Sequence record: SRR20825006_2113
Length of the DNA stretch: 64,000 nucleotides
Reading direction: 5' to 3' (one strand)
Shown here: positions 6,452 through 34,471 of the stretch, in pieces
Position numbering within the stretch: the stretch's first letter is position 1
Layout of the letters: each line of letters starts with the position of its first letter
Position numbers and translations under genes: made by a program
The notes under the pieces: generated by a model
What the model was told of the DNA's origin: nothing
The model's input: only the letters and a program-made list of their open reading frames with translations
The model's database searches: none

Positions 6452-6452
6452 A

Positions 6453-6872: not shown

Positions 6873-6877
6873 AAATT

Positions 6878-6938: not shown

Positions 6939-7183
6939 GAAGGTTCAATCATTTTTTTCCAACATAAGTTACGAGCGAATTTCTCAGATTGATTCCTAAA
7001 GTAGAAAACCTGATCATTGCCCGTGTAGTCGTAGCCCGGCTTGGCAATACATAAGTGATACGTTTGGTTTCTGTAGGTTACCTGATAAATTGAGAAGGAA
7101 GGATCACGCTGAAGAAGCTCAACAATTGCATTCACATAGTAATTGTTAGCCAAATCATAAAGTTCTTTAGGTGTACGACTCAT
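6920..7183 (-). CDS. Small hypothetical protein, 87 aa; paralog of 8042..8302
   Basis: About 38/75 identical (hand count, ungapped) to the 8042..8302 product, sharing FARNLCWKKxIEP. Confidence 0.75.
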   Translation of the reverse strand: MSRTPKELYDLANNYYVNAIVELLQRDPSFSIYQVTYRNQTYHLCIAKPGYDYTGNDQVFYFRNQSEKFARNLCWKKMIEPSLKQTE

Positions 7184-7224
7184 AGTACTTAAAATTAATA
7201 AATTAGTCTTTAAATCAGAATTCT

Positions 7225-8302: not shown

Positions 8303-8618
8303 AAGCGGGTAAAGATATTGCTAAAAAGTATAAGATTAACATCCCGATATATAATTGTTGGTCGATTTTCCTTGGGTCGTTTAATTTATATTGATAATAC
8401 TTATGGATATTACAGCGCCTTTATATAGTGACTGACATTTTAAAATTTGGTAGTGTTCAAATTATGGAAGAGCTAAATTTAAAACGACCGTGAGCCTCAA
8501 GATAAATCACTCTGTTCTTTGTTTAAAATACCTTAGGGCTTCTCAATTGTATGATTCAATTAATTGAATTTAAGTCAATGACGAATGACTTTAAAACTAT
8601 AATAAGATTAAATCAGAT

Positions 8619-9524
8619 TTATTTATATTGATAATTTCCGGGACTTGTTCCTATTCTTTGGGAAAAGGTGGCTGAAAAATGTTGTACTGAAGAAAAACCG
8701 CAAGCGAAAGCAATGTCAGAGAGACTAAAATTGTCCGATTTAATCATTTCGATGGCTTTTTCGATCTTCAAATTAATAATAAAGCTATTTGGTGGGTAAC
8801 CTGTCAATTTTTTTACTTCATAAGTGAACTTAGTTTTACCCATTCCAAACTCAGTAGCCAAATCTTCTATGATCCATTTTTTGTTTAAATCTTGAGTGAC
8901 AACCTGAGTTAGTTTTTCAATAAAATTATCCTCAATAGATATTTGTTGTTCGCGTAAAGATAAATGTCTATGTAGTTCTATAAATAAGTTTTCAATGATG
9001 TTGCCTACCATTGTTTTAAAGCCTTTGTCTTGATTGCTTAACTCTTTTTCGAGTTCCACAAAATATTTTTTAAAAACCTTAGCCTTTTCAATTACAATCA
9101 CATTTTCTGAAGTCATCATTTTACCTAGGCTCTTTTGAAACTTTTTAGAAAGCTTTGTCCATTTTCCCAAGTTTAAAGGATGTGTAGTAGCAAATTCTTC
9201 AGGTTTGATAACAATCCAGTTTATGTGTCCAATATCCATTTTACCCTCTGGACTACCATTCAATTGCCAAGGGGTGGTGACTGATAAATTATCAGGTAGT
9301 AATTCTACTTCCGTATCGTCTACAACCCATTTATACTTACCGCTTTTTACAAAATGAATTTCTATTCCGTCGTTCAAATGAGGACGCATATTTTCATCCA
9401 TTCGAACTTTAGAAAATTTCATACTTCCAAATTGCCTAATATATGGAACACTTTTTAAAGGACCCATATCATCGGGATGCCACCATATTCCTTGATTTCC
9501 AACCTTATTATTTTTTGTCGACAT
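8619..9524 (-). CDS. AraC-family transcriptional regulator, divergent from the PUL
   Basis: N-terminal cupin-like ligand domain (PHLNDGIEIHFVKSG); C-terminal double HTH ending SLSDIAFACGFSSVQHFSATF...GTSP. Confidence 0.92.
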   Translation of the reverse strand: MSTKNNKVGNQGIWWHPDDMGPLKSVPYIRQFGSMKFSKVRMDENMRPHLNDGIEIHFVKSGKYKWVVDDTEVELLPDNLSVTTPWQLNGSPEGKMDIGHINWIVIKPEEFATTHPLNLGKWTKLSKKFQKSLGKMMTSENVIVIEKAKVFKKYFVELEKELSNQDKGFKTMVGNIIENLFIELHRHLSLREQQISIEDNFIEKLTQVVTQDLNKKWIIEDLATEFGMGKTKFTYEVKKLTGYPPNSFIINLKIEKAIEMIKSDNFSLSDIAFACGFSSVQHFSATFSQRIGTSPGNYQYK

Positions 9525-9580
9525 TAATAGTAAACTGAAAATTAAAAATTATTTGAAATTATAATAAAAACGAAAAACCT

Positions 9581-9609
9581 TTTATAAAATTGACCGTTGT
9601 TTAAAAATA
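9581..9609. promoter_or_regulatory. 29-bp element, copy 1, in the araC/PUL divergent intergenic region; putative regulator site
   Basis: TTTATAAAATTGACCGTTGTTTAAAAATA, 26/29 identical to 39000-39028. Confidence 0.65.
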
Positions 9610-9726
9610 TCATTAAATAATTTTCAAAATAATAATCTTGACAAGAATTTAAATGGTCCAGCAGAACTATCTATAAGAGACTAAGAAAACTTGTTAAGTT
9701 GAATTGAAAATTCAAACTTAGTAAAT

Positions 9727-12222
9727 ATGAGTATAACGAATCATCAACAAATTATTTCTATTCTGATTGTTTGTCTAACAATTTGGACTGCTGGTGCTGC
9801 TGAAATTTATGTAGCCCCCACAGGCAATGATAAAAATCGAGGTACAGAAAATGCACCTTTTGCTACAGTGAACAGGGCATTGCGTGAGGCTCGAGAATTA
9901 AGACGACTAAATCAAATTCAGAAAGATGAAGATATACGCATTCTATTAAAAGGGGGGACATACTATTTGAGTGAGCCTATTTTTGTACGTCCTGAAGATT
10001 CTGGTACTGAGACCAGCACTACATCGATTGAGTCGATGAATGAGGAAGCAGTGATTCTCTCCGGTGGAATGCAATTAAATAGTTGGAGACCCACTGAGTC
10101 AATTAGTACTGGCAATAATAATTTAATATGGGAGCTTGATGTGCCCCAAATTGCAGGAAACCTTTTAAAATTTAGACAGTTATGGGTCAATGCAAAAAAG
10201 GCTACACGGGCCAAAAGTACTTCTGGATCTCAGCTTGATCGTATTTTATCATGGGATAAGAATGATGGTACTTGTTGGATTTCGAACGAGGCAGCACCAT
10301 CAGAATTTGAGCCTGGTATGGAATTATTCATACAGCAATGGTGGGCTATAGCTAACCTGAGAATTTCAGGTATGGAAAGAAAACAAGATAGTACAAAATT
10401 AATTTTTGAAATGCCAGAACGGCGTATTCAAAACGAACATCCATGGCCGGCACCTTGGATATCAAAAAAGACCGGTAATTCTCCATTCTACATTACTAAT
10501 GCCAAACAATTTCTAGATGAACCTGGTGAGTGGTATTTCGATAAAAAGCTTTCAAAATTATTTTACCATCCTAGGCCAAGTGAAACACTAAGTGCAAATG
10601 CAGTAATTCCTATTCTTGATAATTTGGTCTTAATGAATGGAACAATAGATAGGCCCATTCATCATCTTCAATTTAAGAATATTTCTTTTCAGCACAGCAA
10701 TTGGACACGTCCTTCTGATTATGGACACGTTCCCCTGCAAGCAGGAATGTTTTTGTTAGATGCATATAAACTTCAAGTTCCAGGAACACCTGATAAGGCA
10801 GGATTGGAAAATCAAGCTTGGATTGGTAGACCTTCTGCTGCAATTGAAGCTAATTTTGTACACAATACATCGTTTATAGGATGTAGTTTTTTGCATCTTT
10901 CTTCAACTGGCCTTGATTACCATAGAGGGGTTAAGGATAACAGAATTCAAGGCAATCTCTTTAAGGATATAGGAGGTAGCGGAATTGTAATAGGTGAATT
11001 TTCAGAACCTGCCGTAGAGACTCACCTTCCTTTTAATCCAAGTGATCCTCGAGAATTATCAAGTGGGAATCTAATTTTAGATAATTTAATTACACAAGTA
11101 AGCACTGAGGACTGGGGAACAGTTGGTATTGCAGCAGGATTTGTGAATGATATTACCATAGCACACAATGAGATTTCAGAGGTTTCCTATACAGGTATCA
11201 GTTTAGGGTGGGGCTGGACTAAAACTAAAAACGCTATGCGAAATAATAAGATATTAGCTAATAAAATTCATCATTATGGTAAACACCTTTACGACGTAGC
11301 TGGTATTTATACCCTTTCCGCACAACCCAATAGTCGTATTGAAGGTAATATGGTTTATGATATCTATCAAAATAACTATGCACACGATCCCTATCATTGG
11401 TTTTATCTCTATACTGATGAAGGTTCTTCTTATATAACAGTAATTAACAATTGGGTACCTGCTCCTAAGTTTTTACAAAATGCCAATGGTCCTGGTAATA
11501 CATGGACTAATAACAATGCATCTTTAAATGAAAGCACCAAGCGAGGTGCCGGTGTAAGAGCACCCTATTCTAGTATGCTTGATCAGATTGTAACGGATAA
11601 AGAATGGCCTTTGAAAGAAGTGCCTAAATATTCGGCAATAGAGCTTATAGGTAAAGATTTAAATACTAAATCAATTAAAGACTTGGTAGCAACTAAAGGG
11701 TTTATTCATCCAGAAGTATACACGTGGAAAAATCGTGTAGTCGTTTATGGCTATCTCAATTATAAGGATGCGTTTATAAAAGAATTACATCAGCTATTTC
11801 CTAAGTCTAAAATTAAAAGCTACGATACTCCATTTTATGAGTATCAAAAGGCTGAGCAATGTATGGATTCAGCTATCGTCGATAGCTGGGATCATATAGT
11901 TTTGACTGCGAATTTGGTTGACGACCCTATAATGCAGCAAGAATATATGGATTATCACGCTACCCAATATCAAAAATGGCCAGAAGTCTCTGAGGGCTTT
12001 TGCAACGCAAACTTTCAACAATTACAAATTTTTAGAAATGGTAGACAACTGCTTCTTTTTATAAGTATTCCTAAAGGATCAGATTTTGAAAAACTCAACC
12101 CTTTAACTGTAAAAAATAATCCCAAAGTTGAGGAGTGGAACAGTTTAATGGCTCGATACCAAACTGGGATCAAGGGTACCAATAAAGGAGAAGTGTGGGT
12201 TGAATTTCAAAAAGTGGAATAA
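9727..12222 (+). CDS. GH141-like beta-helix glycosidase (alpha-L-fucosidase type) fused to a C-terminal L-rhamnose-mutarotase-like domain
   Basis: Signal peptide; IYVAPTGND...PFATV start; beta-helix repeats (YTGISLGWGW, DVAGIYTLS, YLYTDEGSS). The last ~110 aa (QEYMDYH...WPEV...QLQIFRNG...VEEWNSLM) resemble the RhaM/YiiL fold. Confidence 0.75.
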   Translation: MSITNHQQIISILIVCLTIWTAGAAEIYVAPTGNDKNRGTENAPFATVNRALREARELRRLNQIQKDEDIRILLKGGTYYLSEPIFVRPEDSGTETSTTSIESMNEEAVILSGGMQLNSWRPTESISTGNNNLIWELDVPQIAGNLLKFRQLWVNAKKATRAKSTSGSQLDRILSWDKNDGTCWISNEAAPSEFEPGMELFIQQWWAIANLRISGMERKQDSTKLIFEMPERRIQNEHPWPAPWISKKTGNSPFYITNAKQFLDEPGEWYFDKKLSKLFYHPRPSETLSANAVIPILDNLVLMNGTIDRPIHHLQFKNISFQHSNWTRPSDYGHVPLQAGMFLLDAYKLQVPGTPDKAGLENQAWIGRPSAAIEANFVHNTSFIGCSFLHLSSTGLDYHRGVKDNRIQGNLFKDIGGSGIVIGEFSEPAVETHLPFNPSDPRELSSGNLILDNLITQVSTEDWGTVGIAAGFVNDITIAHNEISEVSYTGISLGWGWTKTKNAMRNNKILANKIHHYGKHLYDVAGIYTLSAQPNSRIEGNMVYDIYQNNYAHDPYHWFYLYTDEGSSYITVINNWVPAPKFLQNANGPGNTWTNNNASLNESTKRGAGVRAPYSSMLDQIVTDKEWPLKEVPKYSAIELIGKDLNTKSIKDLVATKGFIHPEVYTWKNRVVVYGYLNYKDAFIKELHQLFPKSKIKSYDTPFYEYQKAEQCMDSAIVDSWDHIVLTANLVDDPIMQQEYMDYHATQYQKWPEVSEGFCNANFQQLQIFRNGRQLLLFISIPKGSDFEKLNPLTVKNNPKVEEWNSLMARYQTGIKGTNKGEVWVEFQKVE

Positions 12223-12250
12223 ATATTTTAACGCTTGAATTATTGTATTA

Positions 12251-14512
12251 ATGAAACAAACCAATCATCAGTTTTACGATTTCCTTGATTTTGATACGAA
12301 CGCAACCGAAAGTTGCGAAGAATCGAGAATATGGATAGCTGGTCAACCTATAGATATAAACTCCTATGGCTTAGGTGTGTCATTAACGATTCCATTTCAT
12401 TGTCAAAAAATGTCAAATGATTTTGAAGCTGATGACAGTATACCACCTAAAAACTATGAGATTTATTTACGCGCTTATGGTGAGCATGTTTTAAGAGTGT
12501 ATAGCAGTTTCGAAGGTATGGTGAATATGGATTCTCAAATGCTGCAATTTCACGAAGACATCGAAGAAATTGGTTTGTTTTATGAGATACAAGAGCATCA
12601 ATGGACCGTTGTAGATATTCACGGTGTAACAAGAGCAATTATAGATTTAGCAGATTGTGCAATCGATTACTGGAGTGATCTTTTGCCACCTCCGCAAAAG
12701 TCCTTTAAGGCTGTTTTTTACCCTGATGGAAAAAAAGGCATAACCTTAAGTAGTCACGATCATTTTTTTCCATCAAGAATAGACGCGATGCCACTTGCAT
12801 TTATATCTAAGAATGGTAATCCAAGTAGTGCTACTTTTTCTATAGAATCTGGGGCTGATGAGAAATTTGTAGGTACAGGAGAGCGCTTTGCTAAGCTTGA
12901 CCTTTCAGGACGCACCTTGCAATTGAAAAATCAGGATGGTCAAGGAGTAAATAATAAAAGGACCTATAAAAATGTGCCTTTCTATCTTTCCAGTAGGTTG
13001 TATGGCTTGTTTTTACATACATCAGCATATTGTAAATTTTCACTAGCCGATTTTTCTACGAGATCTGTTCAAATAATGGCCGAGAAACCAGAAATAGATA
13101 TGTTTCTGATTGGAGGAGATTCACCAGAACAAATCTTAAATGGTTATAAAAAAATTACAGGTTATCCTCAGAAACCACCGTTGTGGAGCTACGGTATTTG
13201 GATGAGTAAGATGACCTACTTTTCTGAACAAGAGGTTATGGAGGTTTGCGAAAAATTGCGGGATCAACAATTTCCATGTGATGTAATTCATTTAGATACT
13301 GGATGGTTTGAAACCGACTGGCTATGCGAATGGAAATTCAATGCTACACGATTTCCAAACCCCAAAAAATTTATTGACAATCTTAACAGACAGGGGTTTC
13401 GGCTAAGCTTATGGCAAATGCCCTATATCTCTGAAAAAGCTATTCAGTATCAAGAGGCTTCTGAAAATCAATTTATTGCAGAAGCTAAGCCAAAATCTGA
13501 CACGAGCAGTTCTAATTTTAGCAATTTAGATTATGCGGGTACAATCGACTTTACATTTCCCAAAGCAGTATTATGGTATAAAAATTTACTAAAAGAATTA
13601 TTTGATTTAGGTGTTAGTGCCATTAAAACAGATTTTGGAGAGGAAATACACTTAGATGCACAATATCATGGTATGCCGGCAAAACTTTTAAATAATATGT
13701 ATGCTTTACTCTATCAAAAGGCAGCATTTGAAATAACAAAGGATGCCACGGGGAATGGGATAATATGGGCACGTGCTGGCTGGGCAGGTTGTCAGCGTTA
13801 TCCTATACATTGGGGAGGTGATGCTGCGGCAAGTTGGGAGGGTATGGCCGGCTCTCTTAAAGGTGGATTACATATAGGACTATCGGGATTTGGATTTTGG
13901 AGCCATGATGTACCAGGGTTTCACGGGGTGCCTGATTTCATGAATTCTATAATACCTGATGATCTCTATGTACGCTGGACCCAATTCGGTGTATTCACAT
14001 CTCATATTCGCTATCACGGAACCTCTAAAAGAGAACCTTATGCATATCCCAATATTGCCCATATCATTAAAAAATGGTGGCGTCTTAGATATGCTTTAAT
14101 ACCCTATATAATTGAAGCTGGGGAGGCTTGTGAAAATTCAGGATTTCCCGTATTGCGGGCGTTATTGTTGCATCATCCTGAAGATCCAATGTGTTGGCAC
14201 ATTGACGATCAATATTATTTTGGTTCTTCATTTTTAGTCGCTCCAATAATGAGTGCGCATGACACTCGAGATATTTACTTCCCAGAAGGGCAATGGGTAA
14301 ATTTTTTCACGGGTGAAATGCTCCAAGGTGGAACTTGGATAAAGAAGTATAAAGCAGGATTGCAGGATATGCCAGTATGGATAAAAGAGGGAACTTCTAT
14401 TCCTTTGTATTTAGAAGAGGTTAGCTGCACTGATGATATGGACTTTATTAAGGTACAATCGTTTAAAATAGATCATAAATTTCAAGGGATTTGGAAACTT
14501 ATGGGGCTATAA
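12251..14512 (+). CDS. GH31 alpha-xylosidase (YicI-like), no signal peptide
   Basis: YKNVPFY, DVIHLDTGW, KTDFGE nucleophile motif, HWGGD acid/base, GFWSHDVPGF; hydrophilic N-terminus. Confidence 0.88.
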   Translation: MKQTNHQFYDFLDFDTNATESCEESRIWIAGQPIDINSYGLGVSLTIPFHCQKMSNDFEADDSIPPKNYEIYLRAYGEHVLRVYSSFEGMVNMDSQMLQFHEDIEEIGLFYEIQEHQWTVVDIHGVTRAIIDLADCAIDYWSDLLPPPQKSFKAVFYPDGKKGITLSSHDHFFPSRIDAMPLAFISKNGNPSSATFSIESGADEKFVGTGERFAKLDLSGRTLQLKNQDGQGVNNKRTYKNVPFYLSSRLYGLFLHTSAYCKFSLADFSTRSVQIMAEKPEIDMFLIGGDSPEQILNGYKKITGYPQKPPLWSYGIWMSKMTYFSEQEVMEVCEKLRDQQFPCDVIHLDTGWFETDWLCEWKFNATRFPNPKKFIDNLNRQGFRLSLWQMPYISEKAIQYQEASENQFIAEAKPKSDTSSSNFSNLDYAGTIDFTFPKAVLWYKNLLKELFDLGVSAIKTDFGEEIHLDAQYHGMPAKLLNNMYALLYQKAAFEITKDATGNGIIWARAGWAGCQRYPIHWGGDAAASWEGMAGSLKGGLHIGLSGFGFWSHDVPGFHGVPDFMNSIIPDDLYVRWTQFGVFTSHIRYHGTSKREPYAYPNIAHIIKKWWRLRYALIPYIIEAGEACENSGFPVLRALLLHHPEDPMCWHIDDQYYFGSSFLVAPIMSAHDTRDIYFPEGQWVNFFTGEMLQGGTWIKKYKAGLQDMPVWIKEGTSIPLYLEEVSCTDDMDFIKVQSFKIDHKFQGIWKLMGL

Positions 14513-14547
14513 ATAATAAAGAAGTGTATTACTAAAAATTAAAAATT

Positions 14548-15306
14548 ATGAAAACAGTTTTATCAGATAGTCAATTAGAACAGTATCAAGAAGAAGGATT
14601 TTGCATCCTCAAAAATGTAATTTCAAATGATTTACTAAATCGATTGCGGTCAGAATGTCAAAGATTCATCAAGGAAAAGGATGATGAGATGGACGCTAAA
14701 GGTGTGGAAGTTGACGAGATCAATCATAAGGGGAAACGCTATTTTATTGCGTTGCGTTACAAGGATAGTGAAACAATGCAGGATCTAATCTTCGGAAAAG
14801 AAATGGAAGAAATAGTACATAAAGTATTGGGAGATGAGGCTTATTTATTTTTAGAACAATTTGTAGTAAAAGCAGCAGATAAGGGTATGACTTTCTCGTG
14901 GCACCAAGACTCGGGTTATCTAGACTTTGATCATAAGCCGTATTTATCTGTATGGCTACCGCTAGATGATGTTTCAGAAGAAAATGGTACAGTTTATATG
15001 TTACCCTATAAAGAGGCCGGAACCCAAAAAAGGATTGACCATGTACTGCAAGAAGGCACCAACGATAAAATAGGATATTTTGGCGATAATCCTGGGGTGC
15101 CGGCTATTTTGAATGCTGGAGATGTTGCCATCTTTTCTAGTACGTGCTTTCATAGAAGTGGATCTAACAAAACCAATAAATCGCGCCGCGTATTATTAAT
15201 TCAATATTCAGCACAACCAATTGTTAAGGAAAATGGTGAGCCGCTTTACTGGGCAGAACCGTTTCTTAAAAATGGAGAAAACTTGAAAGCAGCAAAACTT
15301 TCTTAA
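14548..15306 (+). CDS. Phytanoyl-CoA dioxygenase (PhyH) family Fe(II)/2-oxoglutarate dioxygenase
   Basis: QLEQYQEEGF start, WHQD (HxD), WLPLDD...ENG, distal His in FHRSGSN, 2OG-binding Arg in SRRVL. Confidence 0.88.
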   Translation: MKTVLSDSQLEQYQEEGFCILKNVISNDLLNRLRSECQRFIKEKDDEMDAKGVEVDEINHKGKRYFIALRYKDSETMQDLIFGKEMEEIVHKVLGDEAYLFLEQFVVKAADKGMTFSWHQDSGYLDFDHKPYLSVWLPLDDVSEENGTVYMLPYKEAGTQKRIDHVLQEGTNDKIGYFGDNPGVPAILNAGDVAIFSSTCFHRSGSNKTNKSRRVLLIQYSAQPIVKENGEPLYWAEPFLKNGENLKAAKLS

Positions 15307-15347
15307 CCCATCTTATAGTCTACTTATTAAGATTTAAATAAATACCT

Positions 15348-16931
15348 ATGGAAATATACGAACAGTTATCATCACTTGATTTTGCTGTCGTAGGCTTATA
15401 TCTTATAATTCTTTTAGCCATTGGATTAGGAGTTAGCTTAAAGATCAAAAACACAAAAAATGACAATTTATTTTTAGCAAGCAACTCATTAAAGTGGCCA
15501 AGTATAGGTTTTACTATGTGGGGAACAAATGTTGGGCCATCAATGTTGATAGCCTCAGCAAGCATAGGTTATACTACTGGTATTGTAGCTGGCAATTTTG
15601 CTTGGTATGCGTTTTTATTTATTTTTCTCTTAGCTGTAGTTTTTGCCCCAAGATACCTTGGAGCTAAAGTACAAACCCTTCCCGAATTTATGGGAAAACG
15701 CTTTGGTGCTTCAACACAGAATATTCTGGCTTGGTATACCATTGTTACAATCTTAATAAGTTGGCTTTCCCTAACGCTTTTTGCAGGAGGAATTTTAATT
15801 CAACAAATATTGAATATTCCCATGTGGATCGCAATCGTTTTATTACTGGGTATTTCAGCATTTTTTGCAATGGCAGGAGGTCTTAAAGCAATTGCATTTA
15901 CCAATGTTTTTCAGATGATCCTTTTAATTGTGGTTTCCATAATTCTTACGGTTATTGCTTTTAAAGAGGTAGGTAGTCTGAGCCTTATTCAAGAGAGAAT
16001 CCCATCAGATTACTGGAACCTATTTAGGTCTAGTGATGATGCCGATTATCCTTGGGTGGCTATTGTACTTGGATATCCAGTAATGGGGGTGTGGTTCTGG
16101 TGCACCGATCAGTCTATGGTGCAATCCGTATTGGGAGCTAAAAATATTAAGCAAGGTCAATTAGGAGCTAATTTTACAGGTTGGTTAAAGATTTTAGATG
16201 TGCCTTTATTTATTATTCCAGGGATATTGTGTTTTATACTTTTTCCTGATCTGAATAATCCTGATGAGGCTTACATGACTATGGTTACCCAACTACTACC
16301 CTCTGGATTAAAAGGGCTCGTAATGGCAGTCCTAATCGCAGCACTTATAAGTACCATCGACTCTGCTCTTAATGCTTTAAGCACAGTATTTACAATGGAT
16401 ATTTATGTGAAAAAGTATAAACCAGAAGCCAATCATAAACAAGTAATAAGCATAGGTCGAGTTGTAACTGTATTAGGAGCACTTCTAGCTGTTTTTATTA
16501 CTCTGGCTATCAATAGTATTAAAGGACTTAATTTATTTGACGTATTTCAATCTGTACTTGGTTTTATAGCTCCACCAATGGCTGTTGTATTTCTTTTTGG
16601 AGTATTGTGGTCGGGCACAACAAGGAGGGCCGCAGATGCCATTTTAATTTTTGGTACGGCATTGAGCTTAGGGGTTGGGATTTTATTCTTATGGGTGTTT
16701 CCTAAAGAGGTCTATACCTTTTGGCCACACTTCCTCTTACTTTCATTCTATCTGTTTATAGTACTTGCGATAGGTATAATTGTCTTATCGCTTCTGGACT
16801 CCAGAAGATCTGATACGCTTAATACACTACTCCCAGTAGAAAAAGTGCCAATGCGTTCAAAGGCTAAAGTACTATGGGGAGCGCTCTTTGTAGTAATGAT
16901 CAGCCTGTATATAATTTTTAATGGACATTAG
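15348..16931 (+). CDS. Sodium:solute symporter (SSS/SLC5, sugar type)
   Basis: Many TM helices; TLPEFMGKRFG, GGLKAIAFT, WFWCTDQSMVQSVL, STIDSALN motifs. Confidence 0.92.
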   Translation: MEIYEQLSSLDFAVVGLYLIILLAIGLGVSLKIKNTKNDNLFLASNSLKWPSIGFTMWGTNVGPSMLIASASIGYTTGIVAGNFAWYAFLFIFLLAVVFAPRYLGAKVQTLPEFMGKRFGASTQNILAWYTIVTILISWLSLTLFAGGILIQQILNIPMWIAIVLLLGISAFFAMAGGLKAIAFTNVFQMILLIVVSIILTVIAFKEVGSLSLIQERIPSDYWNLFRSSDDADYPWVAIVLGYPVMGVWFWCTDQSMVQSVLGAKNIKQGQLGANFTGWLKILDVPLFIIPGILCFILFPDLNNPDEAYMTMVTQLLPSGLKGLVMAVLIAALISTIDSALNALSTVFTMDIYVKKYKPEANHKQVISIGRVVTVLGALLAVFITLAINSIKGLNLFDVFQSVLGFIAPPMAVVFLFGVLWSGTTRRAADAILIFGTALSLGVGILFLWVFPKEVYTFWPHFLLLSFYLFIVLAIGIIVLSLLDSRRSDTLNTLLPVEKVPMRSKAKVLWGALFVVMISLYIIFNGH

Positions 16932-17820
16932 GATGAAAAATAACTTCAATACAAATGATGGAACTTCTAATAAACCTTATCTACGTGTAGATATCAATTA
17001 CAATACGTGCTCAGACCTGCCTTCCTTTTCTAAAGGGCCAAAGGGAGATGATTTACTGAAACATAAGGCGATTGCACAAGCGGGGTTTGGAGGCATTCAA
17101 GATGGTATTCCGCAATTATGTCAAGATCTTAATCTTAATCTGACAGCCCACGCTAGGGTAAATCAAATAGGAGATTTGAAAGACCTCTTACCGGTATGGA
17201 AATCTAATAATTACAATTGTGCTACGGTACATTTAGGCTGGGGTATAGAGTCCGATTACCAATGTAACGCTTTGGTTGATTATATTTTAAATACTTCTGT
17301 CAATTATGACTTTCCTATTTACATAGAGACACACCGAGCTACTGTTACTCAAGATATGTTTAGAACGGTAGCACTAATAGAACGTTTTCCTGAAATCCGC
17401 TTCAATGCTGATTTCTCACACTGGTATACTGGTCAAGAAATGGTTTATGGAGGTATTGAAATGAAATGGAAATTTTTAGAACCACTCTTTGATCGCGTTC
17501 GATTTTTACACGGTCGGATTGGGAATCCTGGATGTATACAGGTTGCAATTAAAAATCGTGGTCAAGCAGAATTTATTGAACATTTCAAAGAAATGTGGAT
17601 ACGATCATTTTTAGGTTTTTTAAAATCAGCCAAGCCTGGGGATTACATTGTATTTACAGTAGAATTACTTAGTTCTCAAATTTATTATGCTCAAACCTTA
17701 ATGGATGCTAAAGGTAACCTGATCGAAGATGGAGACCGCTGGGAAGAGGCCTTGCATTACAAATCTATAGCGGAATCTTGCTGGGAAGAGGCACAAAATC
17801 GTTTTAATGTTTTACAGTAA
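16921..17820 (+). CDS. Xylose-isomerase-like TIM-barrel protein (sugar isomerase/epimerase family), cytoplasmic; alternative start 16933
   Basis: Metal-ligand pattern ETHR...NADFSHW...FLHGRIG...TVE; no signal peptide. Confidence 0.65.
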   Translation: MDIRMKNNFNTNDGTSNKPYLRVDINYNTCSDLPSFSKGPKGDDLLKHKAIAQAGFGGIQDGIPQLCQDLNLNLTAHARVNQIGDLKDLLPVWKSNNYNCATVHLGWGIESDYQCNALVDYILNTSVNYDFPIYIETHRATVTQDMFRTVALIERFPEIRFNADFSHWYTGQEMVYGGIEMKWKFLEPLFDRVRFLHGRIGNPGCIQVAIKNRGQAEFIEHFKEMWIRSFLGFLKSAKPGDYIVFTVELLSSQIYYAQTLMDAKGNLIEDGDRWEEALHYKSIAESCWEEAQNRFNVLQ

Positions 17821-20013
17821 TTGATCATGATTAGCTTTAAAAAATATAAACGTATTTTATTAGGTATTGGAGTTCTACTTCTTTATAGTCAATTAGGTAT
17901 TTCTCAGAGTACTCAAGCAACGTGGATCTGGTATCCTGGGGATTTTGAGATTGATTTAGCTAATAAAATGCAAAACCGCCGCACCGAACGTGGTGCTTTT
18001 TTCCCTGTTTTCTGGAAAACTGATAGTCACTATAATTTAGTTGATTTTCATAAGGTGTTTGATTTGTCTCAGCCTGAAGAAGTAACTATAGCTGTAGAGG
18101 GAACCTATAATATCAAAATAGATGGAAAAGCCATTGCTGGCTTTCCAAAGACAATTACTATACCTAAGGGACATCATAAATTGAGTCTTAAAGTATACAA
18201 TCAAGCACATGTACCTACGATCTACATTAATGGTCGAACTGTAAAAACTGATTCTAGTTGGCTAGTTACTTTTGAGGACAAAGAGTGGATCGACCAAAGC
18301 GGAAAAGTATCGGATCAGTCGGGAACCACTTGGTTGAATGCAGGTTCTGCAAATTTAAATGAAATTACAGATTTACCTTCACAATATGCGTTACCGGTAA
18401 AACTGTTGAAACCAATTCAATCTGAAGTCCAACAAGATGGAATACTCTATGATTTCGGAAAGGAAACTTTTGGTTTTTTAAAACTACTTGGAGTGCAGGG
18501 TCAAGGTCAAGTAGCTATCTATTATGGTGAATCTAAAGAGGAAGCCCTTTCTACTTCCCACTGTGAAACATTGGATCAGATAGAGATTCAGAACAGCATA
18601 CCGCGTGATCATACCTTGAATTTATCTAAAGCCTTTAGATATGTATATGTAGTTCCTTCAAATGGAGTACAACTGGATTCTATAGCCATGGATTTTGAAT
18701 ATGCACCACTTGAAGATAAAGGAAATTTCATCTGCTCTGATGCGCAAGTCAATGAGATCTATGAGGTAGCTAAGTATACCTTTCATCTTACTGCGCGTGA
18801 ATTTTTTATCGATGGAATTAAGCGTGATCGTTGGATCTGGAGTGGTGATGCCAATCAAAGTTATTTAATGAATTACTACCTAACCAATGACTCCCCAACG
18901 GTAGAGCGTACTATGATAGCCTTACGGGGAAAAGACCCAGTAACAGCACATATAAATACCATAATGGATTACTCGCTGTATTGGTTTTTGTCGATTTATG
19001 ATTATTACCTCTATAGTGGAGATCCTTCATTTATAAAACAATTTTATCCACGGATGAAATCGCTCATGACATACTGCTTATCACGTCGGGATCAAAATGG
19101 AATGCTTCAAGGACTTGCCGGGGATTGGGTATTTATAGATTGGGCAGAGGGTCTTAGTAAAGAAGGTGCAGTAAGTTTTGAGCAAGTTTTGTTTGCACGC
19201 AGCTTAGAAGCGATGGCATTATGTGCAGAGATAGCTAACTATCCAAATGAAGCGTTGGAATATCAAGAAATGGCAGAAACTCTTAAATCTAAAATCTTTG
19301 ATATGTATTGGAATTCAGAAAAAGGTGCTCTAGTACACAATGCTATCAGTGGTAAGCCTACAGATCACGTCACACGCTATGCCAATATGTTTGGAATTTT
19401 CTTCGATTACTTCAACGAAGACCAAAAGTTACAGGTTAAAAATAAAGTCCTCTTAAATGCTGATGTGCCCAAGATTGTAACTCCGTATATGCGATTTTAT
19501 GAGTTGGAAGCACTTTGTGCTATGAATGAACAAGCCTATGTTTTAGATCAAATAAAATCCTATTGGGGTGGTATGTTAGAATTGGGAGCAACTTCATTTT
19601 GGGAAGAATATAATCCAGATAAAAAGGGTATCGAACATTTAGAGATGTATGGTAGACCTTTTGGTAAAAGCTTATGTCACGCTTGGGGAGCGAGTCCAAT
19701 TTACTTGCTCGGAAAATACTTCCTAGGTGTAAAGCCTGTCAATCCAGGGTATACTACTTATCAAGTAAAACCGCAATTGGGTGGACTACAATGGATGGAG
19801 GGTACGGTTCCTACTCCAAATGGCCAAATCAATATCTATTGCTCTTCCAAAGAGATTAAAGTAAGAGCAGATGAGGGTATAGGGACATTATATATTAACA
19901 GTGTCAATAAGCCGAAGACCAATACGGGTCAAATAGTACACTTAGGGGGCGACAATTACACCCTTGAGCTTCGCCCGAACACCAACTATTTAATTAAATA
20001 TAAAGCGCTATAA
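17821..20013 (+). CDS. GH78 alpha-L-rhamnosidase (start may be ATG 17827)
   Basis: DFGKETFG, DGIKRDRWIWSGD, GATSFWE, SLCHAWGASP; signal peptide. Confidence 0.88.
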   Translation: MIMISFKKYKRILLGIGVLLLYSQLGISQSTQATWIWYPGDFEIDLANKMQNRRTERGAFFPVFWKTDSHYNLVDFHKVFDLSQPEEVTIAVEGTYNIKIDGKAIAGFPKTITIPKGHHKLSLKVYNQAHVPTIYINGRTVKTDSSWLVTFEDKEWIDQSGKVSDQSGTTWLNAGSANLNEITDLPSQYALPVKLLKPIQSEVQQDGILYDFGKETFGFLKLLGVQGQGQVAIYYGESKEEALSTSHCETLDQIEIQNSIPRDHTLNLSKAFRYVYVVPSNGVQLDSIAMDFEYAPLEDKGNFICSDAQVNEIYEVAKYTFHLTAREFFIDGIKRDRWIWSGDANQSYLMNYYLTNDSPTVERTMIALRGKDPVTAHINTIMDYSLYWFLSIYDYYLYSGDPSFIKQFYPRMKSLMTYCLSRRDQNGMLQGLAGDWVFIDWAEGLSKEGAVSFEQVLFARSLEAMALCAEIANYPNEALEYQEMAETLKSKIFDMYWNSEKGALVHNAISGKPTDHVTRYANMFGIFFDYFNEDQKLQVKNKVLLNADVPKIVTPYMRFYELEALCAMNEQAYVLDQIKSYWGGMLELGATSFWEEYNPDKKGIEHLEMYGRPFGKSLCHAWGASPIYLLGKYFLGVKPVNPGYTTYQVKPQLGGLQWMEGTVPTPNGQINIYCSSKEIKVRADEGIGTLYINSVNKPKTNTGQIVHLGGDNYTLELRPNTNYLIKYKAL

Positions 20014-20020
20014 ACCTACT

Positions 20021-22882
20021 ATGAAGCTAATTCAAAATTACCTAAGACTTTTATTCGTATTAATGTGCTTGTCAGTGGTACACGCTCAGGATACCCAAAT
20101 TCAGTTTTTATCAGGAACTGGGTATCAAGATACCAAAGATTGGGAATTTAAGATTTCTAAGGGACGTAATAGTGACAAGTGGTCAACTATAGGTGTACCT
20201 TCAGTATGGGAGCAGGAAGGTTTTGGAAAGTATCAATATGGAATAAAATTTTATGGTAAGCCTTTTCCTGATGGTATTGCAGACGAAGTAGGAATGTATA
20301 AATATGCTTTTGAAGTTCCCAAAAATTGGGAAAATAAAAGGGTGAATATTGTCTTTGATGGGGTCATGACCGATGCTGAAGTTCAAATTAATGGACGTTC
20401 CGCTGGAGCGGTTCATCAAGGTGGTTTCTACCGATTTAAATATGATATAACGGATCTATTAGAATTTGGTAAATCTAATTTACTTGAGGTTACTGTTAGT
20501 AAAGAATCTAAAAATGCGAGTGTAAACCTTGCAGAACGCAGAGCAGATTATTGGAATTTTGGAGGAATTTTTAGACCGGTTTTTTTAGAAGCATTACCAG
20601 CGACTCACATAGCGCGTAGTGCCTTACGAGCGGAAGCTGATGGTACTTTTGAGGCAGCTGTTTTTTTAGGAAATGGCACTCAGGGACTAGCAGCACAGGT
20701 TAGTATTTATGAGAAATCAGGTAAAAAGATTGGCAAAACACTATCCGGTCAACTTGCTGACGGGAGTGATAAAATTCTGCTGTCTGGAAGCTTTGAAAAT
20801 ATAAAAACGTGGACTTCTGAAACACCCAATTTATATGAAGTAAGAATTGAACTTTTAAAGGATGAGAAGGTTATTCACAAGATTAACGAGACAATAGGAT
20901 TCAGGACCATAGAAATAAAAAAAGGGGATGGGATCTATGTTAATGGCACACGTGTGTTGATGAAAGGTATCAATAGGCATAGTTTCTGGCCTGAATCTGG
21001 ACGTACCTTGAATAAGCAGCTTAATTATGATGACGCTCGCCTTATTAAAGAGATGAATATGAATGCTGTACGATTGTCACACTATCCTCCAGATCCTGAA
21101 TTTTTAGCAGCTTGCGATGAATTAGGCTTGTATGTGATGGACGAATTAGGGGGTTGGCACGGACATTATGATGATGCTGTCGGAAAAAAACTTGTCAGAG
21201 AAACAGTAATTCGAGACCTAAATCATCCTAGCATTATTTTTTGGTCAAATGGTAATGAAGGAGGATGGAATACAAATTTAGATGATCAATTTGCTATTTG
21301 GGATATTCAAAATAGACCAGTACTGCATCCACAGCAAGAATTAAATGGGGTTGAAACCATGCATTATCGCTCCTACGGAGAAACTTTAGAGTATTTAAGA
21401 GGGGATCATATTTTTATGCCTACTGAGTATTTGCATGGTCTGTATGATGGTGGGCATGGAGCCGGATTTGATGATTATTGGGAAGTATTGCGCAATCATC
21501 CTCGAAGCGGAGGAGGTTATTTGTGGGTTTTTGCTGATGAAGGCGTTGCTCGAACAGATCAAGATGGACGAATTGATAACCAAGGAAATTTTGGAGCGGA
21601 TGGTATAGTTGGACCTCACCACGAAAAAGAAGGTAGTTTTTTTACTGTAAAAGAAGTATGGTCCCCAGTAATGATCACGACACCACATAAGCTTACACAA
21701 GACTTTAATGGCGAATTTGATATTGAGAATAGATATTTTTTTACTGATTTATCAGAATGTAGAGTTGAGTGGGAATTAGCAAATTTTGCAAAGCCTGATG
21801 ATGCTCAAATTGGACATATATCAATCCAAAAAAATACGGTTGAGAATTTTCAGTTACCCCCCCAAACTACCGGAAAACTGAAAATAAATTTACCTAAAGA
21901 CTGGAAGAAGGCAGATGTACTTTATTTGAAAGTTATCGATTCTCAGGGAAAAGAGTTATGGACTTGGAGTTATACTTGGGATAAGGAATCTCAACTTCCT
22001 ACGAGCACCTTGTCGAGTACGCCTACTTTAGTAGAGACTGAAGCATTGTATCAAGTTACTGCTTCTCAAACGGTTTTAAAATTTACTAAGCATGATGGAA
22101 AATTAGCTAGTGTTACTCAGGCAGGAAAAACAATAGGTTTTAAAAACGGTCCTCAGATTATAATGGCGCGTCGTGGAGATCGAACATTAGATGGTACAAT
22201 TAATCCAGATTTTGAAAAAGGAGAGGACCGTATCTACAAAGAATTTGCTTGTATTGACGAAGAAGTAAACTGCTCGGAAAGTTTAATTAACCTAACGGCT
22301 AAAAAGGTTGAGAATTTGATAAAAATTGAAGCCTCTTATCACGGCATTCTACAAAAGGTACTATGGACAATACATCCCGACGGCCTATTGCAAATGGATT
22401 ATGAATATGAATATAATGGTGTGACAGAGTTAGCCGGTATTTACTTTGATTATCCTGAATCAATGATGCGCTCTAAAAAATGGCTAGGTGCAGGCCCTTA
22501 TCGTGTTTGGCAAAATAGATTAAAGGGAACAACACTAGATGTTTGGGAAAATGAATACAACGATCCTATACCAGGAGAGTCCTTCAATTATCCTGAATTT
22601 AAGGGGTATTTTAGAGACTGGCAATGGGCTCAATTTAAAACTACCGAAGGTACGATAGAGCTATTTAACAAATCTTCAGATACTTACTTAGGTGTTTATT
22701 CACCTCGTGATGGCAGAGATGCCTTATTGTATACACTTCCACAAACAGGTATTGCGGTATTTGACGTTATTCCTGCTGTGCGTAATAAAGTTAATGCTAC
22801 AGATTTAGTTGGACCTTCTTCGCAACCAAGATGGCTTCACGGAACACAGCGCCACACGCTTTATTTAAAATTCAAAAACTAA
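20021..22882 (+). CDS. GH2 glycosidase (beta-galactosidase/glucuronidase type)
   Basis: DYWNFGGIFRPV, KGINRH, NAVRLSHYP, NHPSIIFWSNGNE; signal peptide. Confidence 0.9.
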   Translation: MKLIQNYLRLLFVLMCLSVVHAQDTQIQFLSGTGYQDTKDWEFKISKGRNSDKWSTIGVPSVWEQEGFGKYQYGIKFYGKPFPDGIADEVGMYKYAFEVPKNWENKRVNIVFDGVMTDAEVQINGRSAGAVHQGGFYRFKYDITDLLEFGKSNLLEVTVSKESKNASVNLAERRADYWNFGGIFRPVFLEALPATHIARSALRAEADGTFEAAVFLGNGTQGLAAQVSIYEKSGKKIGKTLSGQLADGSDKILLSGSFENIKTWTSETPNLYEVRIELLKDEKVIHKINETIGFRTIEIKKGDGIYVNGTRVLMKGINRHSFWPESGRTLNKQLNYDDARLIKEMNMNAVRLSHYPPDPEFLAACDELGLYVMDELGGWHGHYDDAVGKKLVRETVIRDLNHPSIIFWSNGNEGGWNTNLDDQFAIWDIQNRPVLHPQQELNGVETMHYRSYGETLEYLRGDHIFMPTEYLHGLYDGGHGAGFDDYWEVLRNHPRSGGGYLWVFADEGVARTDQDGRIDNQGNFGADGIVGPHHEKEGSFFTVKEVWSPVMITTPHKLTQDFNGEFDIENRYFFTDLSECRVEWELANFAKPDDAQIGHISIQKNTVENFQLPPQTTGKLKINLPKDWKKADVLYLKVIDSQGKELWTWSYTWDKESQLPTSTLSSTPTLVETEALYQVTASQTVLKFTKHDGKLASVTQAGKTIGFKNGPQIIMARRGDRTLDGTINPDFEKGEDRIYKEFACIDEEVNCSESLINLTAKKVENLIKIEASYHGILQKVLWTIHPDGLLQMDYEYEYNGVTELAGIYFDYPESMMRSKKWLGAGPYRVWQNRLKGTTLDVWENEYNDPIPGESFNYPEFKGYFRDWQWAQFKTTEGTIELFNKSSDTYLGVYSPRDGRDALLYTLPQTGIAVFDVIPAVRNKVNATDLVGPSSQPRWLHGTQRHTLYLKFKN

Positions 22883-32149: not shown

Positions 32150-34471
32150 TTGAAGCAATTGATCATCTCTATATTACTAGGTGTTACTTGGATTATTCAA
32201 GCACAGGTTCCAGGGCTCGATGATTATAATCAGAAATGGTATACTCAAAGTAAAAACTCATCAGAATCAATGCCTTTAGGAGGAGGTGATATTGGTCTAA
32301 ATGTCTGGGTAGAAAATAATGATATTTTCTTCTATCTTTCAAAAAGCGGCACTTTTGATGAACACAACACGTTGCTAAAGTTGGGACGCGTAAAAGTACA
32401 TCTTGATCCCAATCCATTCAAAAACAAAGGGGGTTTTAAGCAAGAGCTGTTTTTACGCGATGGTTACATTAGCATTAGTCAAGGAGAAACGCTAGTAAAT
32501 TTATGGGTAGATGTTTATCAACCTATTATTCATGTAGATGTCAAAAGTGATACACCTATTGCTACGTCCATTTCGTATGAATCTTGGCGTTACACAAACC
32601 GAAGAACTGTTGGTAAGGAGAACAATGCCAACTCTTATAAATGGGCTCCTCAAGGTCCTATCCAAACCTACGCAGATTCCATATCATTCAGAGATAATCG
32701 CATAGAATTTTTTCATCATAATCAGGAACGTACTGTTTTCGATGTAGCTGTTAAACAGCAAAAGCTAGAAGGCGTAAAGGACTCCCTCTTTAATCCTTTA
32801 AAATATTTAATCTTTGGAGGAACTATAAGTGGTGATGGTTTTAGGCCAGTGGGTACCTATATAGGAAAATATAGCAATACAGATTTTAAAGGATATACAC
32901 TTAAAAGTATTAAAGCTTCTAGAGCACATCACGTTCAAATAAGCTTACACACCCAGCAGACTAATGATATCAAAACCTGGCGCGCTGTTTTAAATCAACT
33001 AGAGGCACAAAGTAATCGCAATCATAAAACCAGTATTACCTGGTGGAATCAATTTTGGGATCGAAGCTTTATAAATACCGGGAATTTAAAACAAAACAAT
33101 CAAGACACTTTATATCAATTAGGTCAAAATTATCAGTTGTTTCGTTTTATGCTTGGAGCTAATGCATATGGAAAATATCCCACTAAGTTTAATGGTGGAC
33201 TTTTTACATTCGACCCTGTATTGACAGACACCCTAGCTACATATACACCAGATTTTAGAAATTGGGGAGGTGGTACAATGACCGCACAAAATCAACGATT
33301 AGTCTATTGGCCGATGCTTAAGAGTGGTGATTTTGACATGTTAGATGCACAACTGGATTATTATTTGAGCTTACAAAAAAATGCAGAACTAAGGAGCAAA
33401 GTTTATTGGGCACATAGTGGTGCAGCATTTACTGAACAACTTGAGAATTTCGGGTTACCAAACCCTGCGGAATATGGATGGGAACGGCCAAAAGATTTTG
33501 ATCCGGGAATGCAATATAATGCTTGGTTAGAATACGAATGGGATACCGTATTTGAATTTTGTGATATGATGTTGTCTTTAAAAGCGTATAATCATCAAGA
33601 GATTAAAAAGTATACACAATTTATACTTAGTTGTATTCAATTTTTTGATGAACATTATCAGTACATCGCTAGAAAGCGTGGGCGAAAAGCTTTGAACGAC
33701 AAGGGACATTTAATACTGTATCCAGGATCGGCCGCAGAGACCTATAAAATGACGTATAATGCTAATAGCACAATAGCAGCATTAAAAACAATTGTAAATA
33801 AACTAAAGGTTTATGGGAATACTATTCTAGATGCTAAAACACTAGAGTATTTAATGGAAGTTGAATCTAGGATCCCTCCACTCAATTATAGAATACAACA
33901 AGGTTATAAGACTCTTGCACCCGCACAATCGTGGGAACGAATAAATAATACTGAAGCTCCTCAACTTTATCCGGTATATCCCTGGAAGATTTTTAAAATA
34001 GGTAGTTCTGATTTAAACATAGCTCAGAATACTTTTTTCTATGATGAAGATGTTGTACGATTTCGAGATTATAAGGGTTGGAAACAGGATCTAATTTTTG
34101 CTGCACGGCTTGGACTAACTCAGGAAGCTGCTGCGCTAACCTCAAAGAAATTGGCTAATTCAGGGCGGCGTTTCCCTGCGTTTTGGGGACCAGGTTTTGA
34201 CTGGGTTCCTGATCACAATTGGGGAGGGAGCGGAATGATTGGTCTTCAAGAAATGCTCTTACAAACTAATGAAAACAAGATTTTTCTATTTCCAGCTTGG
34301 CCAAAGCATTGGGATGTACACTTTAAACTTCATTGCGATAATGCAACGACTGTGGAAGCCAAATTGGTTAATGGTGAAATGGAATTTTTAAAAGTTACGC
34401 CTTCAGAGCGAGCAAAAGATGTTATCAGCCTTCTAAAGTATTCAAATACAGATAAACTAAATATCCACTAA
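32150..34471 (+). CDS. GH139-like (DUF5703) alpha-2-O-methyl-L-fucosidase (TTG start)
   Basis: SESMPLGGGDIGLNVW, PTKFNGGLFT, FWGPGFDWVPDHNWGG; resembles BT0984 (recalled); RG-II context. Confidence 0.72.
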   Translation: MKQLIISILLGVTWIIQAQVPGLDDYNQKWYTQSKNSSESMPLGGGDIGLNVWVENNDIFFYLSKSGTFDEHNTLLKLGRVKVHLDPNPFKNKGGFKQELFLRDGYISISQGETLVNLWVDVYQPIIHVDVKSDTPIATSISYESWRYTNRRTVGKENNANSYKWAPQGPIQTYADSISFRDNRIEFFHHNQERTVFDVAVKQQKLEGVKDSLFNPLKYLIFGGTISGDGFRPVGTYIGKYSNTDFKGYTLKSIKASRAHHVQISLHTQQTNDIKTWRAVLNQLEAQSNRNHKTSITWWNQFWDRSFINTGNLKQNNQDTLYQLGQNYQLFRFMLGANAYGKYPTKFNGGLFTFDPVLTDTLATYTPDFRNWGGGTMTAQNQRLVYWPMLKSGDFDMLDAQLDYYLSLQKNAELRSKVYWAHSGAAFTEQLENFGLPNPAEYGWERPKDFDPGMQYNAWLEYEWDTVFEFCDMMLSLKAYNHQEIKKYTQFILSCIQFFDEHYQYIARKRGRKALNDKGHLILYPGSAAETYKMTYNANSTIAALKTIVNKLKVYGNTILDAKTLEYLMEVESRIPPLNYRIQQGYKTLAPAQSWERINNTEAPQLYPVYPWKIFKIGSSDLNIAQNTFFYDEDVVRFRDYKGWKQDLIFAARLGLTQEAAALTSKKLANSGRRFPAFWGPGFDWVPDHNWGGSGMIGLQEMLLQTNENKIFLFPAWPKHWDVHFKLHCDNATTVEAKLVNGEMEFLKVTPSERAKDVISLLKYSNTDKLNIH

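Follow-up and report, generated by a model that had tools for sequence, protein, structure and literature searches.

We examined a stretch of 64,000 nucleotides from sequence record SRR20825006_2113 (below, the window; positions are those of the window unless a locus is named) and in it a gene at 14548..15306 (+) that encodes a PhyH-family Fe(II)/2-oxoglutarate (2OG) oxygenase. The gene begins with ATG, its product of 252 amino acids (aa) belongs to PF05721, and it stands between genes for a GH31 glycosidase and a sodium:solute symporter (SSF). The DNA comes from a marine flavobacterium, and its gene content marks the window as a locus for the use of rhamnogalacturonan-II (RG-II). A first-pass annotation of this DNA had proposed that the oxygenase may be a new kind of sugar O-demethylase. 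Methyl ethers block sugar catabolism. All carbohydrate demethylases that we met in the literature are P450s with 6-O-methyl-galactose as their substrate, and no carbohydrate O-demethylase of another kind is known to have been described. RG-II has been called the most complex of plant glycans, and what becomes of its 2-O-methyl-xylosyl-fucose disaccharide and of free 2-O-methyl sugars has lacked an explanation.

The oxygenase gene and its protein

The PhyH profile aligns with the protein over its full length (positions 1-213 of 213) at E 1.1e-28 and 101.4 bits, against a Pfam cut-off of 22. A signal peptide is absent, as judged by eye from the N-terminus. The metal ligands H119 (14902-14904), D121 (14908-14910) and H202 (15151-15153) and the 2OG-binding R213 (15184-15186), all on the + strand, are in place, and H119, D121, H202 and R213/R214 are invariant in 27/27 aligned relatives that are 40-83% identical. 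The intact HxD...H triad, the 2OG arginine and the position between a glycosidase and a symporter, which the first-pass annotation had pointed out, are borne out. The HxD motif, the distal histidine and the arginine 11 residues later align with those of human phytanoyl-CoA hydroxylase (2a1x).

AlphaFold gives a confident model (pLDDT 93.8, pTM 0.90) with a double-stranded beta-helix fold. Every listed Foldseek match has a probability of 1.00, with TM scores of 0.59-0.71 and 14-25% identity, and all of the listed matches are PhyH-type 2OG oxygenases except two, which are chains of a trypanosomal RNA-editing complex. The nearest solved folds are SnoK/SnoN at the top of the list, proline hydroxylase H11, MysH, EvdO2 and EctD. 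There are 2848 database relatives at E <= 0.001; the best 120 of these are 55-99% identical, 204-256 aa long and carry generic names only. Because of the conserved residues, the confident model and the PhyH-type folds with low identity to them, the protein is, as far as its sequence tells, an intact 2OG oxygenase without a characterised close relative.

The protein does not reach the cut-offs of the NCBIfam models for methylphosphonate hydroxylase (50.6 vs 500), ectoine hydroxylase (43.3 vs 336.5), chlorinating enzymes (24.3 vs 226.3) and the 'sporadic carbohydrate cluster' oxygenase (27.8 vs 150). No P450 family was matched in the Pfam scan of the protein, which besides PhyH gave HalD (26.9 vs a cut-off of 26) and one match below cut-off. 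Membership in the PhyH family is borne out by every feature that could be tested.

A conserved GH31-PhyH-SSF module

With the PhyH protein as query, 55 loci were found in reference genomes, and 36 of these form a Bacteroidota subset with 65-89% identity. In this subset GH31 lies upstream of PhyH in 31/31 loci with at least 2.5 kb of upstream DNA, and SSF lies downstream in 32/32 loci with at least 1.8 kb of downstream DNA. The adjacency to both genes spans Flavobacteriaceae, Cyclobacteriaceae, Sphingobacteriaceae, Saprospiraceae and others. Further members of the module are less constant: GH141 is found in 24/36 loci, a TIM-barrel gene in 22 of the 29 loci with about 8 kb downstream, and a Gfo/Idh/MocA oxidoreductase, often inserted between GH31 and PhyH, in 19/36.

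When an even sample of 401 Flavobacteriaceae genomes was searched for both orthologs, PhyH was found in 8 and GH31 in 9, and 8/8 PhyH genes lie less than 60 bp from GH31. The ninth GH31 genome, G716, has a third form of the module (locus L144, G716:C1:1228000-1246000), with an oxidoreductase of the Gfo/Idh/MocA type. In a class-wide sample of 401 genomes the GH31 ortholog was present solely in G001; the other 8 matches are generic GH31 genes, about 40% identical.

PhyH relatives of about 50% identity in other phyla stand mostly beside sugar genes. A ManD/galactonate-dehydratase-family gene is present in eight such loci (L034, L035, L036, L039, L040, L044, L045 and L047), whose hosts are Gemmatimonadota, Latescibacterota, a Zixibacteria genome and unclassified metagenome-assembled genomes; among these eight, 5 have an SDR gene, 7 have ABC-transporter parts and at least 4 have a second, weak PhyH-like gene. 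At L048 there are a sugar ABC transporter, a sulfatase and GH43, and at L054 GH63-like, GH36/31-like and GH78 genes.

A corrinoid methyltransferase set in the same position

Metagenome contigs were scanned with the Bacteroides GH31 P0209 (60% identical to the GH31 of the window), which gave 79 loci, many labelled human gut. Directly after GH31 a gene or domain of 353 aa resembling methyltransferase I (MT-I) is present in 68/68 loci with at least 1.2 kb downstream, and PhyH in 0/68. The TIM-barrel gene is likewise found in 0/68 and the Gfo/Idh/MocA oxidoreductase in 2/68. Among the loci whose downstream DNA extends to at least 2.2 kb, 57/66 have a corrinoid-binding domain, recognised as PF02310 + PF02607 in two Pfam-scanned loci and elsewhere by tblastn likeness to those two. 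Often a single protein of 606 aa combines the MT-I-like and corrinoid parts, and the corrinoid part falls under the NCBIfam methyltransferase corrinoid protein and matches PDB 1y80 at 2.7e-58. SSF follows GH31 in 65/66 corrinoid-type loci; 40 loci have a URO-D/MtaA-like gene and 40 a RamA-like gene. MT-I, corrinoid protein, methyltransferase II (MT-II) and activator are the standard make-up of anaerobic ether-cleaving O-demethylases.

True MtaB (PF12176, E 6.5e-158) is present in 6/68 corrinoid-type loci (L084:15060-18928, L085, L088, L091, L094, L099). It stands beside the corrinoid protein of the module, and of these six loci 4 have the MtaA-like and 3 the RamA-like gene.

In the opposite direction, the corrinoid domain is present in 0/36 PhyH-anchored Bacteroidota loci and the MT-I-like gene in 1/36. 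The latter is L027 from a Sunxiuqinia genome, with the order GH31, MT-I-like, oxidoreductase, PhyH, SSF. The MT-I-like query has no match in genomes G001 and G002, and PhyH-family matches are found in 0/14 control genomes, B. thetaiotaomicron among them. A non-homologous corrinoid enzyme set thus replaces PhyH between orthologous GH31 and SSF in anaerobes. The mutual exclusion of PhyH and corrinoid methyltransferases that the first-pass annotation had suggested holds in the counts, with L027 as one exception and with about two independent changes behind it (see Discussion). Its mention of a B. thetaiotaomicron cluster with corrinoid genes agrees with the literature: BT0339 is listed as an alpha-xylosidase in PMC10434189, and BT_0340/0342/0343 are called methyltransferase ('Mta') corrinoid proteins in PMC8941943, where no sugar role is stated.

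A FastTree tree was made from 72 GH31 sequences, after 41/113 rows had been dropped as at least 95% identical; the eight generic genes of the class-wide sample served as outgroup. The GH31 orthologs all group together with support 100, and a long branch separates their clade from the generic GH31 genes. Two rows, L071 and L103, are labelled 'B12' on DNA that ends with GH31, so that the label is unverified there.

The 353-aa region (L074:12235-14055 (+), L084:12224-13285, L027:2220-3284) looks like a new substrate-specific MT-I family, fused or alone. It matches no Pfam or NCBIfam family, with weak URO-D hints, and there is no PDB sequence match in the N-terminal 390 residues. In some gut loci a second paralog of 353 aa (L074:6825-7886 (+)), which is 25% identical to the MT-I-like protein and weakly matches URO-D (E 0.0017), stands upstream of GH141. 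It may be a further methyltransferase for methylated sugars, e.g. for 2-O-methyl-fucose.

Partner genes and the surrounding locus

The GH31 gene at 12251..14512 (+) encodes an alpha-xylosidase-like glycosidase of 753 aa (PF01055, E 8.8e-84), which scores 468 bits with the PRK10658 alpha-xylosidase model, under its cut-off of 606. It matches PDB 5f7c over the full length (E 0, 1083 bits) and YicI at about 1e-107; 5f7c is probably BT_0339. The protein is 100% identical to one named Leeuwenhoekiella palythoae and 60% identical to Bacteroides sp. proteins, and its N-terminus is conserved with the Bacteroides ortholog, as seen from peptide patterns. Hydrophobic signal-like N-termini, judged by eye, are found on GH141 and most glycosidases and are lacking on GH31, PhyH and a 299-aa protein encoded downstream, and the signal-less GH31 is taken to be cytoplasmic. 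The SSF gene at 15348..16931 (+) encodes 527 aa (PF00474, E 7.9e-54; TIGR00813, 259.5 bits vs a cut-off of 184), and we propose that the symporter may be the inner-membrane importer of a methylated sugar or disaccharide.

The gene at 16921..17820 (+) encodes the conserved cytoplasmic protein of 299 aa with a xylose-isomerase-like TIM barrel. There is no Pfam match for it even at E 5. Its structure neighbours in the Atlas (TM 0.89-0.95) are named xylose isomerase-like, and the best PDB folds for the model (pLDDT 81.4) are UlaE, ketose 3-epimerases, IolE and xylose isomerase at TM 0.5-0.57. E136, D164, H197 and E248, a candidate metal set, are invariant in 13/13 relatives. Going by the model, the protein is possibly an isomerase, epimerase or lyase acting on the sugar product.

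Upstream of GH31 lies a gene at 9727..12222 (+) for a signal-bearing GH141 protein, a BT1002-like alpha-L-fucosidase (GH141_M, E 1.4e-56) with a C-terminal rhaM mutarotase-like domain (E 4.7e-11); it matches PDB 5mqp (BT_1002) at E 1.1e-187. The rhaM domain (residues about 630-830) is at the C-terminus of GH141 in the window and in most Flavobacteriaceae loci. Elsewhere rhaM has a gene of its own immediately before GH31 (e.g. L084:9275-9967), and it is missing from Cyclobacteriaceae and gut GH141. The gaps from GH141 to SSF are 28, 35 and 41 bp, the SSF and 299-aa genes overlap by 11 bp, and all are on the same strand; by spacing, the genes from GH141 to the TIM barrel form a tight operon. In a scan of 8400-20200 there were 34 promoter-like sites (41.7 expected) and 12 terminator-like sites (7.3 expected), none of either kind within the short operon gaps.

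A divergent AraC-family regulator gene (8619..9524 (-), HTH_18 E 2.2e-17) probably controls the locus. Its ortholog lies upstream in many PhyH loci, and an AraC-like regulator heads Flavobacterium RG-II loci in the main text of bioRxiv 10.64898/2026.03.13.711244. After it the genes follow on one strand: the GH141-rhaM fusion, GH31, PhyH, SSF and the 299-aa protein, then GH78-like, GH2, GH137-like (named by its match to a glucuronidase/arabinofuranosidase model), GH2, GH106, SASA esterase, GH139, GH127 and SusC/D, and then DUF3826, DUF6298, GH140, GH28, GH43, BT_1020-like, GH78, esterase and GH95. The families on which the assignment to RG-II rests are GH141, GH139 (DUF5703), GH140 (Apiosidase), GH143/142 (BT_1020-like), GH127, GH106, GH95, GH78, GH28, DUF3826 and SusC/D, with part of the mapping from Pfam names to GH numbers provisional. 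The GH139 gene noticed in the first-pass annotation is indeed there (32150..34471 (+)). It is a homolog of 2-O-methyl-alpha-L-fucosidase (DUF5703_N, E 1.5e-113) and matches PDB 9hyq at E 2e-272; 9HYQ/9HMB are GH139 depositions of PMC12282258. By homology, this gene would be a second source of 2-O-methyl sugar within the locus.

Two large secreted proteins without a Pfam family, of 821 and 575 aa and with about 31-34% likeness to each other, are encoded at 34479-36944 (+) and 44531-46258 (+). They are also present in RG-II loci of other genomes (L027, L029-L031, L081 and L111) and are candidates for RG-II enzymes not yet described. To the left of the sugar locus, at 2161-7974, is a DNA-damage cluster of an HNH_4 endonuclease-like open reading frame (ORF), DUF5694, a Y-family polymerase (IMS) and an SRAP protein, with a 139-aa ORF on the minus strand upstream of the polymerase. 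The segment 12251-17820 was found at half or more of the sampled words in 19 public runs from 8 studies, 16 of them metagenomes (mostly marine, seawater, algae) and 3 single coded organisms. A marine habitat is odd for a locus directed at land-plant pectin; the actual substrate may be pectin-like glycans of seagrass or algae.

Discussion

The sugar demethylases nearest to our proposal are the P450 6-O-methyl-D-galactose demethylases of marine Bacteroidota (Robb et al. 2018, PMC6292453). Like PhyH as proposed here, they remove sugar O-methyl groups oxidatively and O2-dependently, in a polysaccharide-utilisation context in marine Flavobacteriia, and release formaldehyde via a hydroxylated methyl intermediate. 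The folds and cofactors are unrelated: P450 is a heme-thiolate enzyme with redox partners, whereas PhyH is a stand-alone Fe(II)/2OG double-stranded beta-helix. The substrates differ also, 6-O-methyl-galactose of porphyran in one case and, as proposed, a 2-O-methyl pentose or deoxyhexose of RG-II in the other. The plant enzymes T6ODM/CODM, cited in the same paper, are 2OG/Fe(II) O-demethylases that act via hydroxylation of the methyl group, as we propose for PhyH, but on aryl or enol methyl ethers of alkaloids and not on sugars. They belong to another branch of the superfamily (DOXC class), and no such Pfam family matched the PhyH protein. It appears from sequence comparison that PhyH may work like the P450 and plant 2OG demethylases but belongs to neither.

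Within its own family, PhyH shares the aligned triad and 2OG arginine with human phytanoyl-CoA 2-hydroxylase, EctD and proline hydroxylase H11. The match to 2a1x is weak (E 1.7e-10), the identity in the listed fold alignments low, and the substrates of these enzymes (acyl-CoA, osmolyte and amino acid) are unrelated to sugars. In EvdO2 (orthosomycins) and SnoK/SnoN (nogalamycin), and reportedly in KanJ, the same fold binds carbohydrates and attacks C-H bonds next to sugar oxygens, and EvdO2 is the third-best PDB sequence match of the PhyH protein (3.2e-08). These enzymes, EvdO2 and SnoK/SnoN being 17-19% identical to PhyH, do biosynthetic tailoring on large glycosides, and none is a catabolic demethylase. 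The corrinoid O-demethylase sets share with PhyH the slot between orthologous GH31 and SSF and presumably the net reaction from methyl ether to free hydroxyl. They are non-homologous to it, independent of O2 and composed of several proteins; the methyl passes to Co(I) and then to a carrier, while in our proposal for PhyH it is oxidised. In the full-text literature (subscription journals and preprint supplements lie outside it) we found no paper on sugar demethylation by 2OG oxygenases or by corrinoid systems, none on PhyH in polysaccharide loci, and no sugar substrate for BT0339-0341. The words 'dioxygenase', 'phytanoyl', 'GH31' and 'demethyl' are absent from the main text of the bioRxiv preprint on RG-II tools mentioned above.

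What could the module act on? The methyl-xylosyl-fucose linkage is reportedly the sole RG-II linkage that goes uncleaved. According to PMC12282258, B. thetaiotaomicron breaks all but one RG-II linkage, and according to PMC7939467, digests including BT1002 reduce the RG-II chain-A oligosaccharide to monosaccharides and the disaccharide 2-O-Me-Xyl-alpha1,3-Fuc. A symporter next to an alpha-xylosidase-like GH31 that lacks a signal peptide suits import of this disaccharide followed by its cleavage in the cytoplasm. A free 2-OH is needed for aldose-ketose isomerisation and a 2-O-methyl group blocks this step, and for this reason a demethylase would be the missing step. Since parts of a corrinoid O-demethylase fill the same slot in anaerobes, PhyH can be read as the O2-dependent counterpart, and by this analogy it is probably a sugar O-demethylase. 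With moderate confidence we propose that PhyH is a cytoplasmic, O2-dependent, ether-cleaving demethylase for 2-O-methyl-D-xylose, free or in 2-O-Me-Xyl-alpha1,3-L-Fuc. The first-pass annotation had pointed to 2-O-methyl-fucose released by GH139; the gene order GH141-GH31-PhyH-SSF, the signal-less GH31 and the BT1002 product speak for 2-O-methyl-xylose or the disaccharide more than for that sugar.

According to this proposal, periplasmic GH141 would cut the 2-O-Me-Xyl-Fuc disaccharide from RG-II chain A and the SSF symporter would import it. Signal-less GH31 would split 2-O-Me-Xyl-alpha1,3-L-Fuc, or its demethylated form, and the PhyH oxygenase would hydroxylate the methyl group, after which the hemiacetal would collapse to a free 2-OH sugar and formaldehyde while 2OG is converted to succinate and CO2. 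Xylose and fucose would then enter ordinary catabolism. The order of the GH31 and oxygenase steps could thus be either, and formaldehyde is the one-carbon product that hydroxylation of the methyl would give. More tentatively, and as something a little short of probable, we suggest a broader scheme: the GH141-GH31-symporter module would complete RG-II breakdown via 2-O-Me-Xyl-alpha1,3-L-Fuc, and the methyl-ether step would have been invented twice, as a PhyH-type 2OG oxygenase in aerobic Bacteroidota and as a new URO-D-like methyltransferase that is joined to a corrinoid protein or adjoins one in anaerobes including gut Bacteroides (BT0339-BT0343).

A candidate sink for formaldehyde was found in one relative. 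We searched three formaldehyde families in the genomes G001-G003, which are those behind loci L001, L012 and L027. The closest genome, G001 (PhyH 89% identical), has 3-hexulose-6-phosphate synthase, a known formaldehyde sink, at 252 bits against a cut-off of 200; glutathione-dependent formaldehyde dehydrogenase and S-formylglutathione hydrolase stay below their cut-offs in all three genomes.

A number of observations weigh against our proposal. Neither G002 nor G003 has any of the three families above its cut-off, so that the genome search suggested in the first-pass annotation gives a sink in one relative of three, and, as that annotation had already remarked for the window, no formaldehyde-handling family is found by Pfam among the 33 window ORFs of at least 120 aa. 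B. thetaiotaomicron has the corrinoid module, yet it reportedly leaves the methyl-xylosyl-fucose linkage uncleaved. Its module may be silent there or serve another substrate. The enzyme mix, as given in PMC7939467, names no BT0339, and therefore the uncleaved linkage, though unexplained, does not refute the scheme. The GH31 of G716 (56% identical) stands in the order GH95-GH31-oxidoreductase-SSF-GH3 with neither PhyH nor corrinoid genes. On the GH31 tree there are about two changes of partner, which follow taxonomy, and therefore the clean pattern reflects few independent events. Moreover, different queries served as anchors for the PhyH and the corrinoid loci, and the metagenome scan favours loci like the Bacteroides query. 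The first-pass annotation had asked whether orthologs lie mostly in non-carbohydrate surroundings: in Bacteroidota all with enough flanking DNA are at GH31/SSF and in other phyla most are beside sugar genes, but L042 (creatininase-like, TRAP transporter, gentisate dioxygenase) and L055 (dimethylformamidase-like) are non-sugar contexts. Finally, a TIM barrel and a Gfo/Idh/MocA oxidoreductase are frequent in the aerobic module and lacking from the anaerobic one, which hints that the oxygenase product may not be a plain demethylated sugar.

These two genes are also an argument for removal of the methyl ether by another chemistry, in which PhyH hydroxylates ring carbon C2, the hemiketal loses methanol, and the resulting 2-keto sugar (xylosone) is converted by the oxidoreductase and the TIM barrel, e.g. 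to xylulose. KanJ, a PhyH-family enzyme said to hydroxylate the amine-bearing C2' of kanamycin, would be a model for such an attack, the nearest folds SnoK/SnoN and EvdO2 attack sugar ring carbons, and a window free of formaldehyde genes would be in order. The module of the window itself, however, has no oxidoreductase, and the 19 PDB sequence matches at E <= 0.01 do not include KanJ. 2OG demethylases such as AlkB, JmjC and plant T6ODM/CODM usually hydroxylate the methyl group, and G001 has a formaldehyde-fixing enzyme. We regard attack at C2 as unlikely.

Improbable in our opinion is that PhyH hydroxylates or in another way oxidises a non-methylated sugar or sugar derivative imported by SSF (e.g. 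fucose, xylose, apiose or aceric acid) and that the corrinoid genes of anaerobes are unrelated to it, serving e.g. methanol from pectin. The six loci with true MtaB and the linkage that B. thetaiotaomicron reportedly leaves would agree with this, and relatives in other phyla adjoin sugar-acid dehydratases and dehydrogenases. On the other hand, it is the MT-I-like gene that takes the exact PhyH position from GH31 to SSF in every locus, and MtaB is rare. Methanol from pectin methyl esters is freed outside the cytoplasm by esterases and needs no GH31/SSF partner. Besides, a signal-less GH31 implies an imported alpha-D-xyloside or glucoside, and the methylated xyloside is the sole such linkage known in RG-II. 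It is very improbable that PhyH is a passenger gene without a carbohydrate role, e.g. one whose product hydroxylates osmolytes, lipids or phosphonates as ectoine hydroxylase or PhnY do. In favour of this, methylphosphonate and ectoine hydroxylase lead the NCBIfam names, source names read 'ectoine hydroxylase-related' and L042 and L055 are non-sugar contexts, but the NCBIfam scores are far under the cut-offs, the spacing is operon-like and GH31 and SSF adjoin it in every Bacteroidota locus with enough DNA, across families.

With a methyl-xylose demethylase as the preferred reading of PhyH, the locus offers testable candidates for the missing RG-II steps: GH31, a transporter and two alternative demethylases. 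If the broader scheme is true, the two demethylases would be the first of their kinds for carbohydrates, one dependent on 2OG and the other on B12, and a methyl-xylosidase or xylosyl-fucose specificity would be added to those of GH31. PhyH would be a single-protein, cofactor-simple, regioselective sugar demethylase, useful for glycan analysis and biocatalysis. The B12-dependent 'Mta' proteins of gut Bacteroides would acquire a role, and the two systems would make up a clean aerobic/anaerobic enzyme pair for one reaction.

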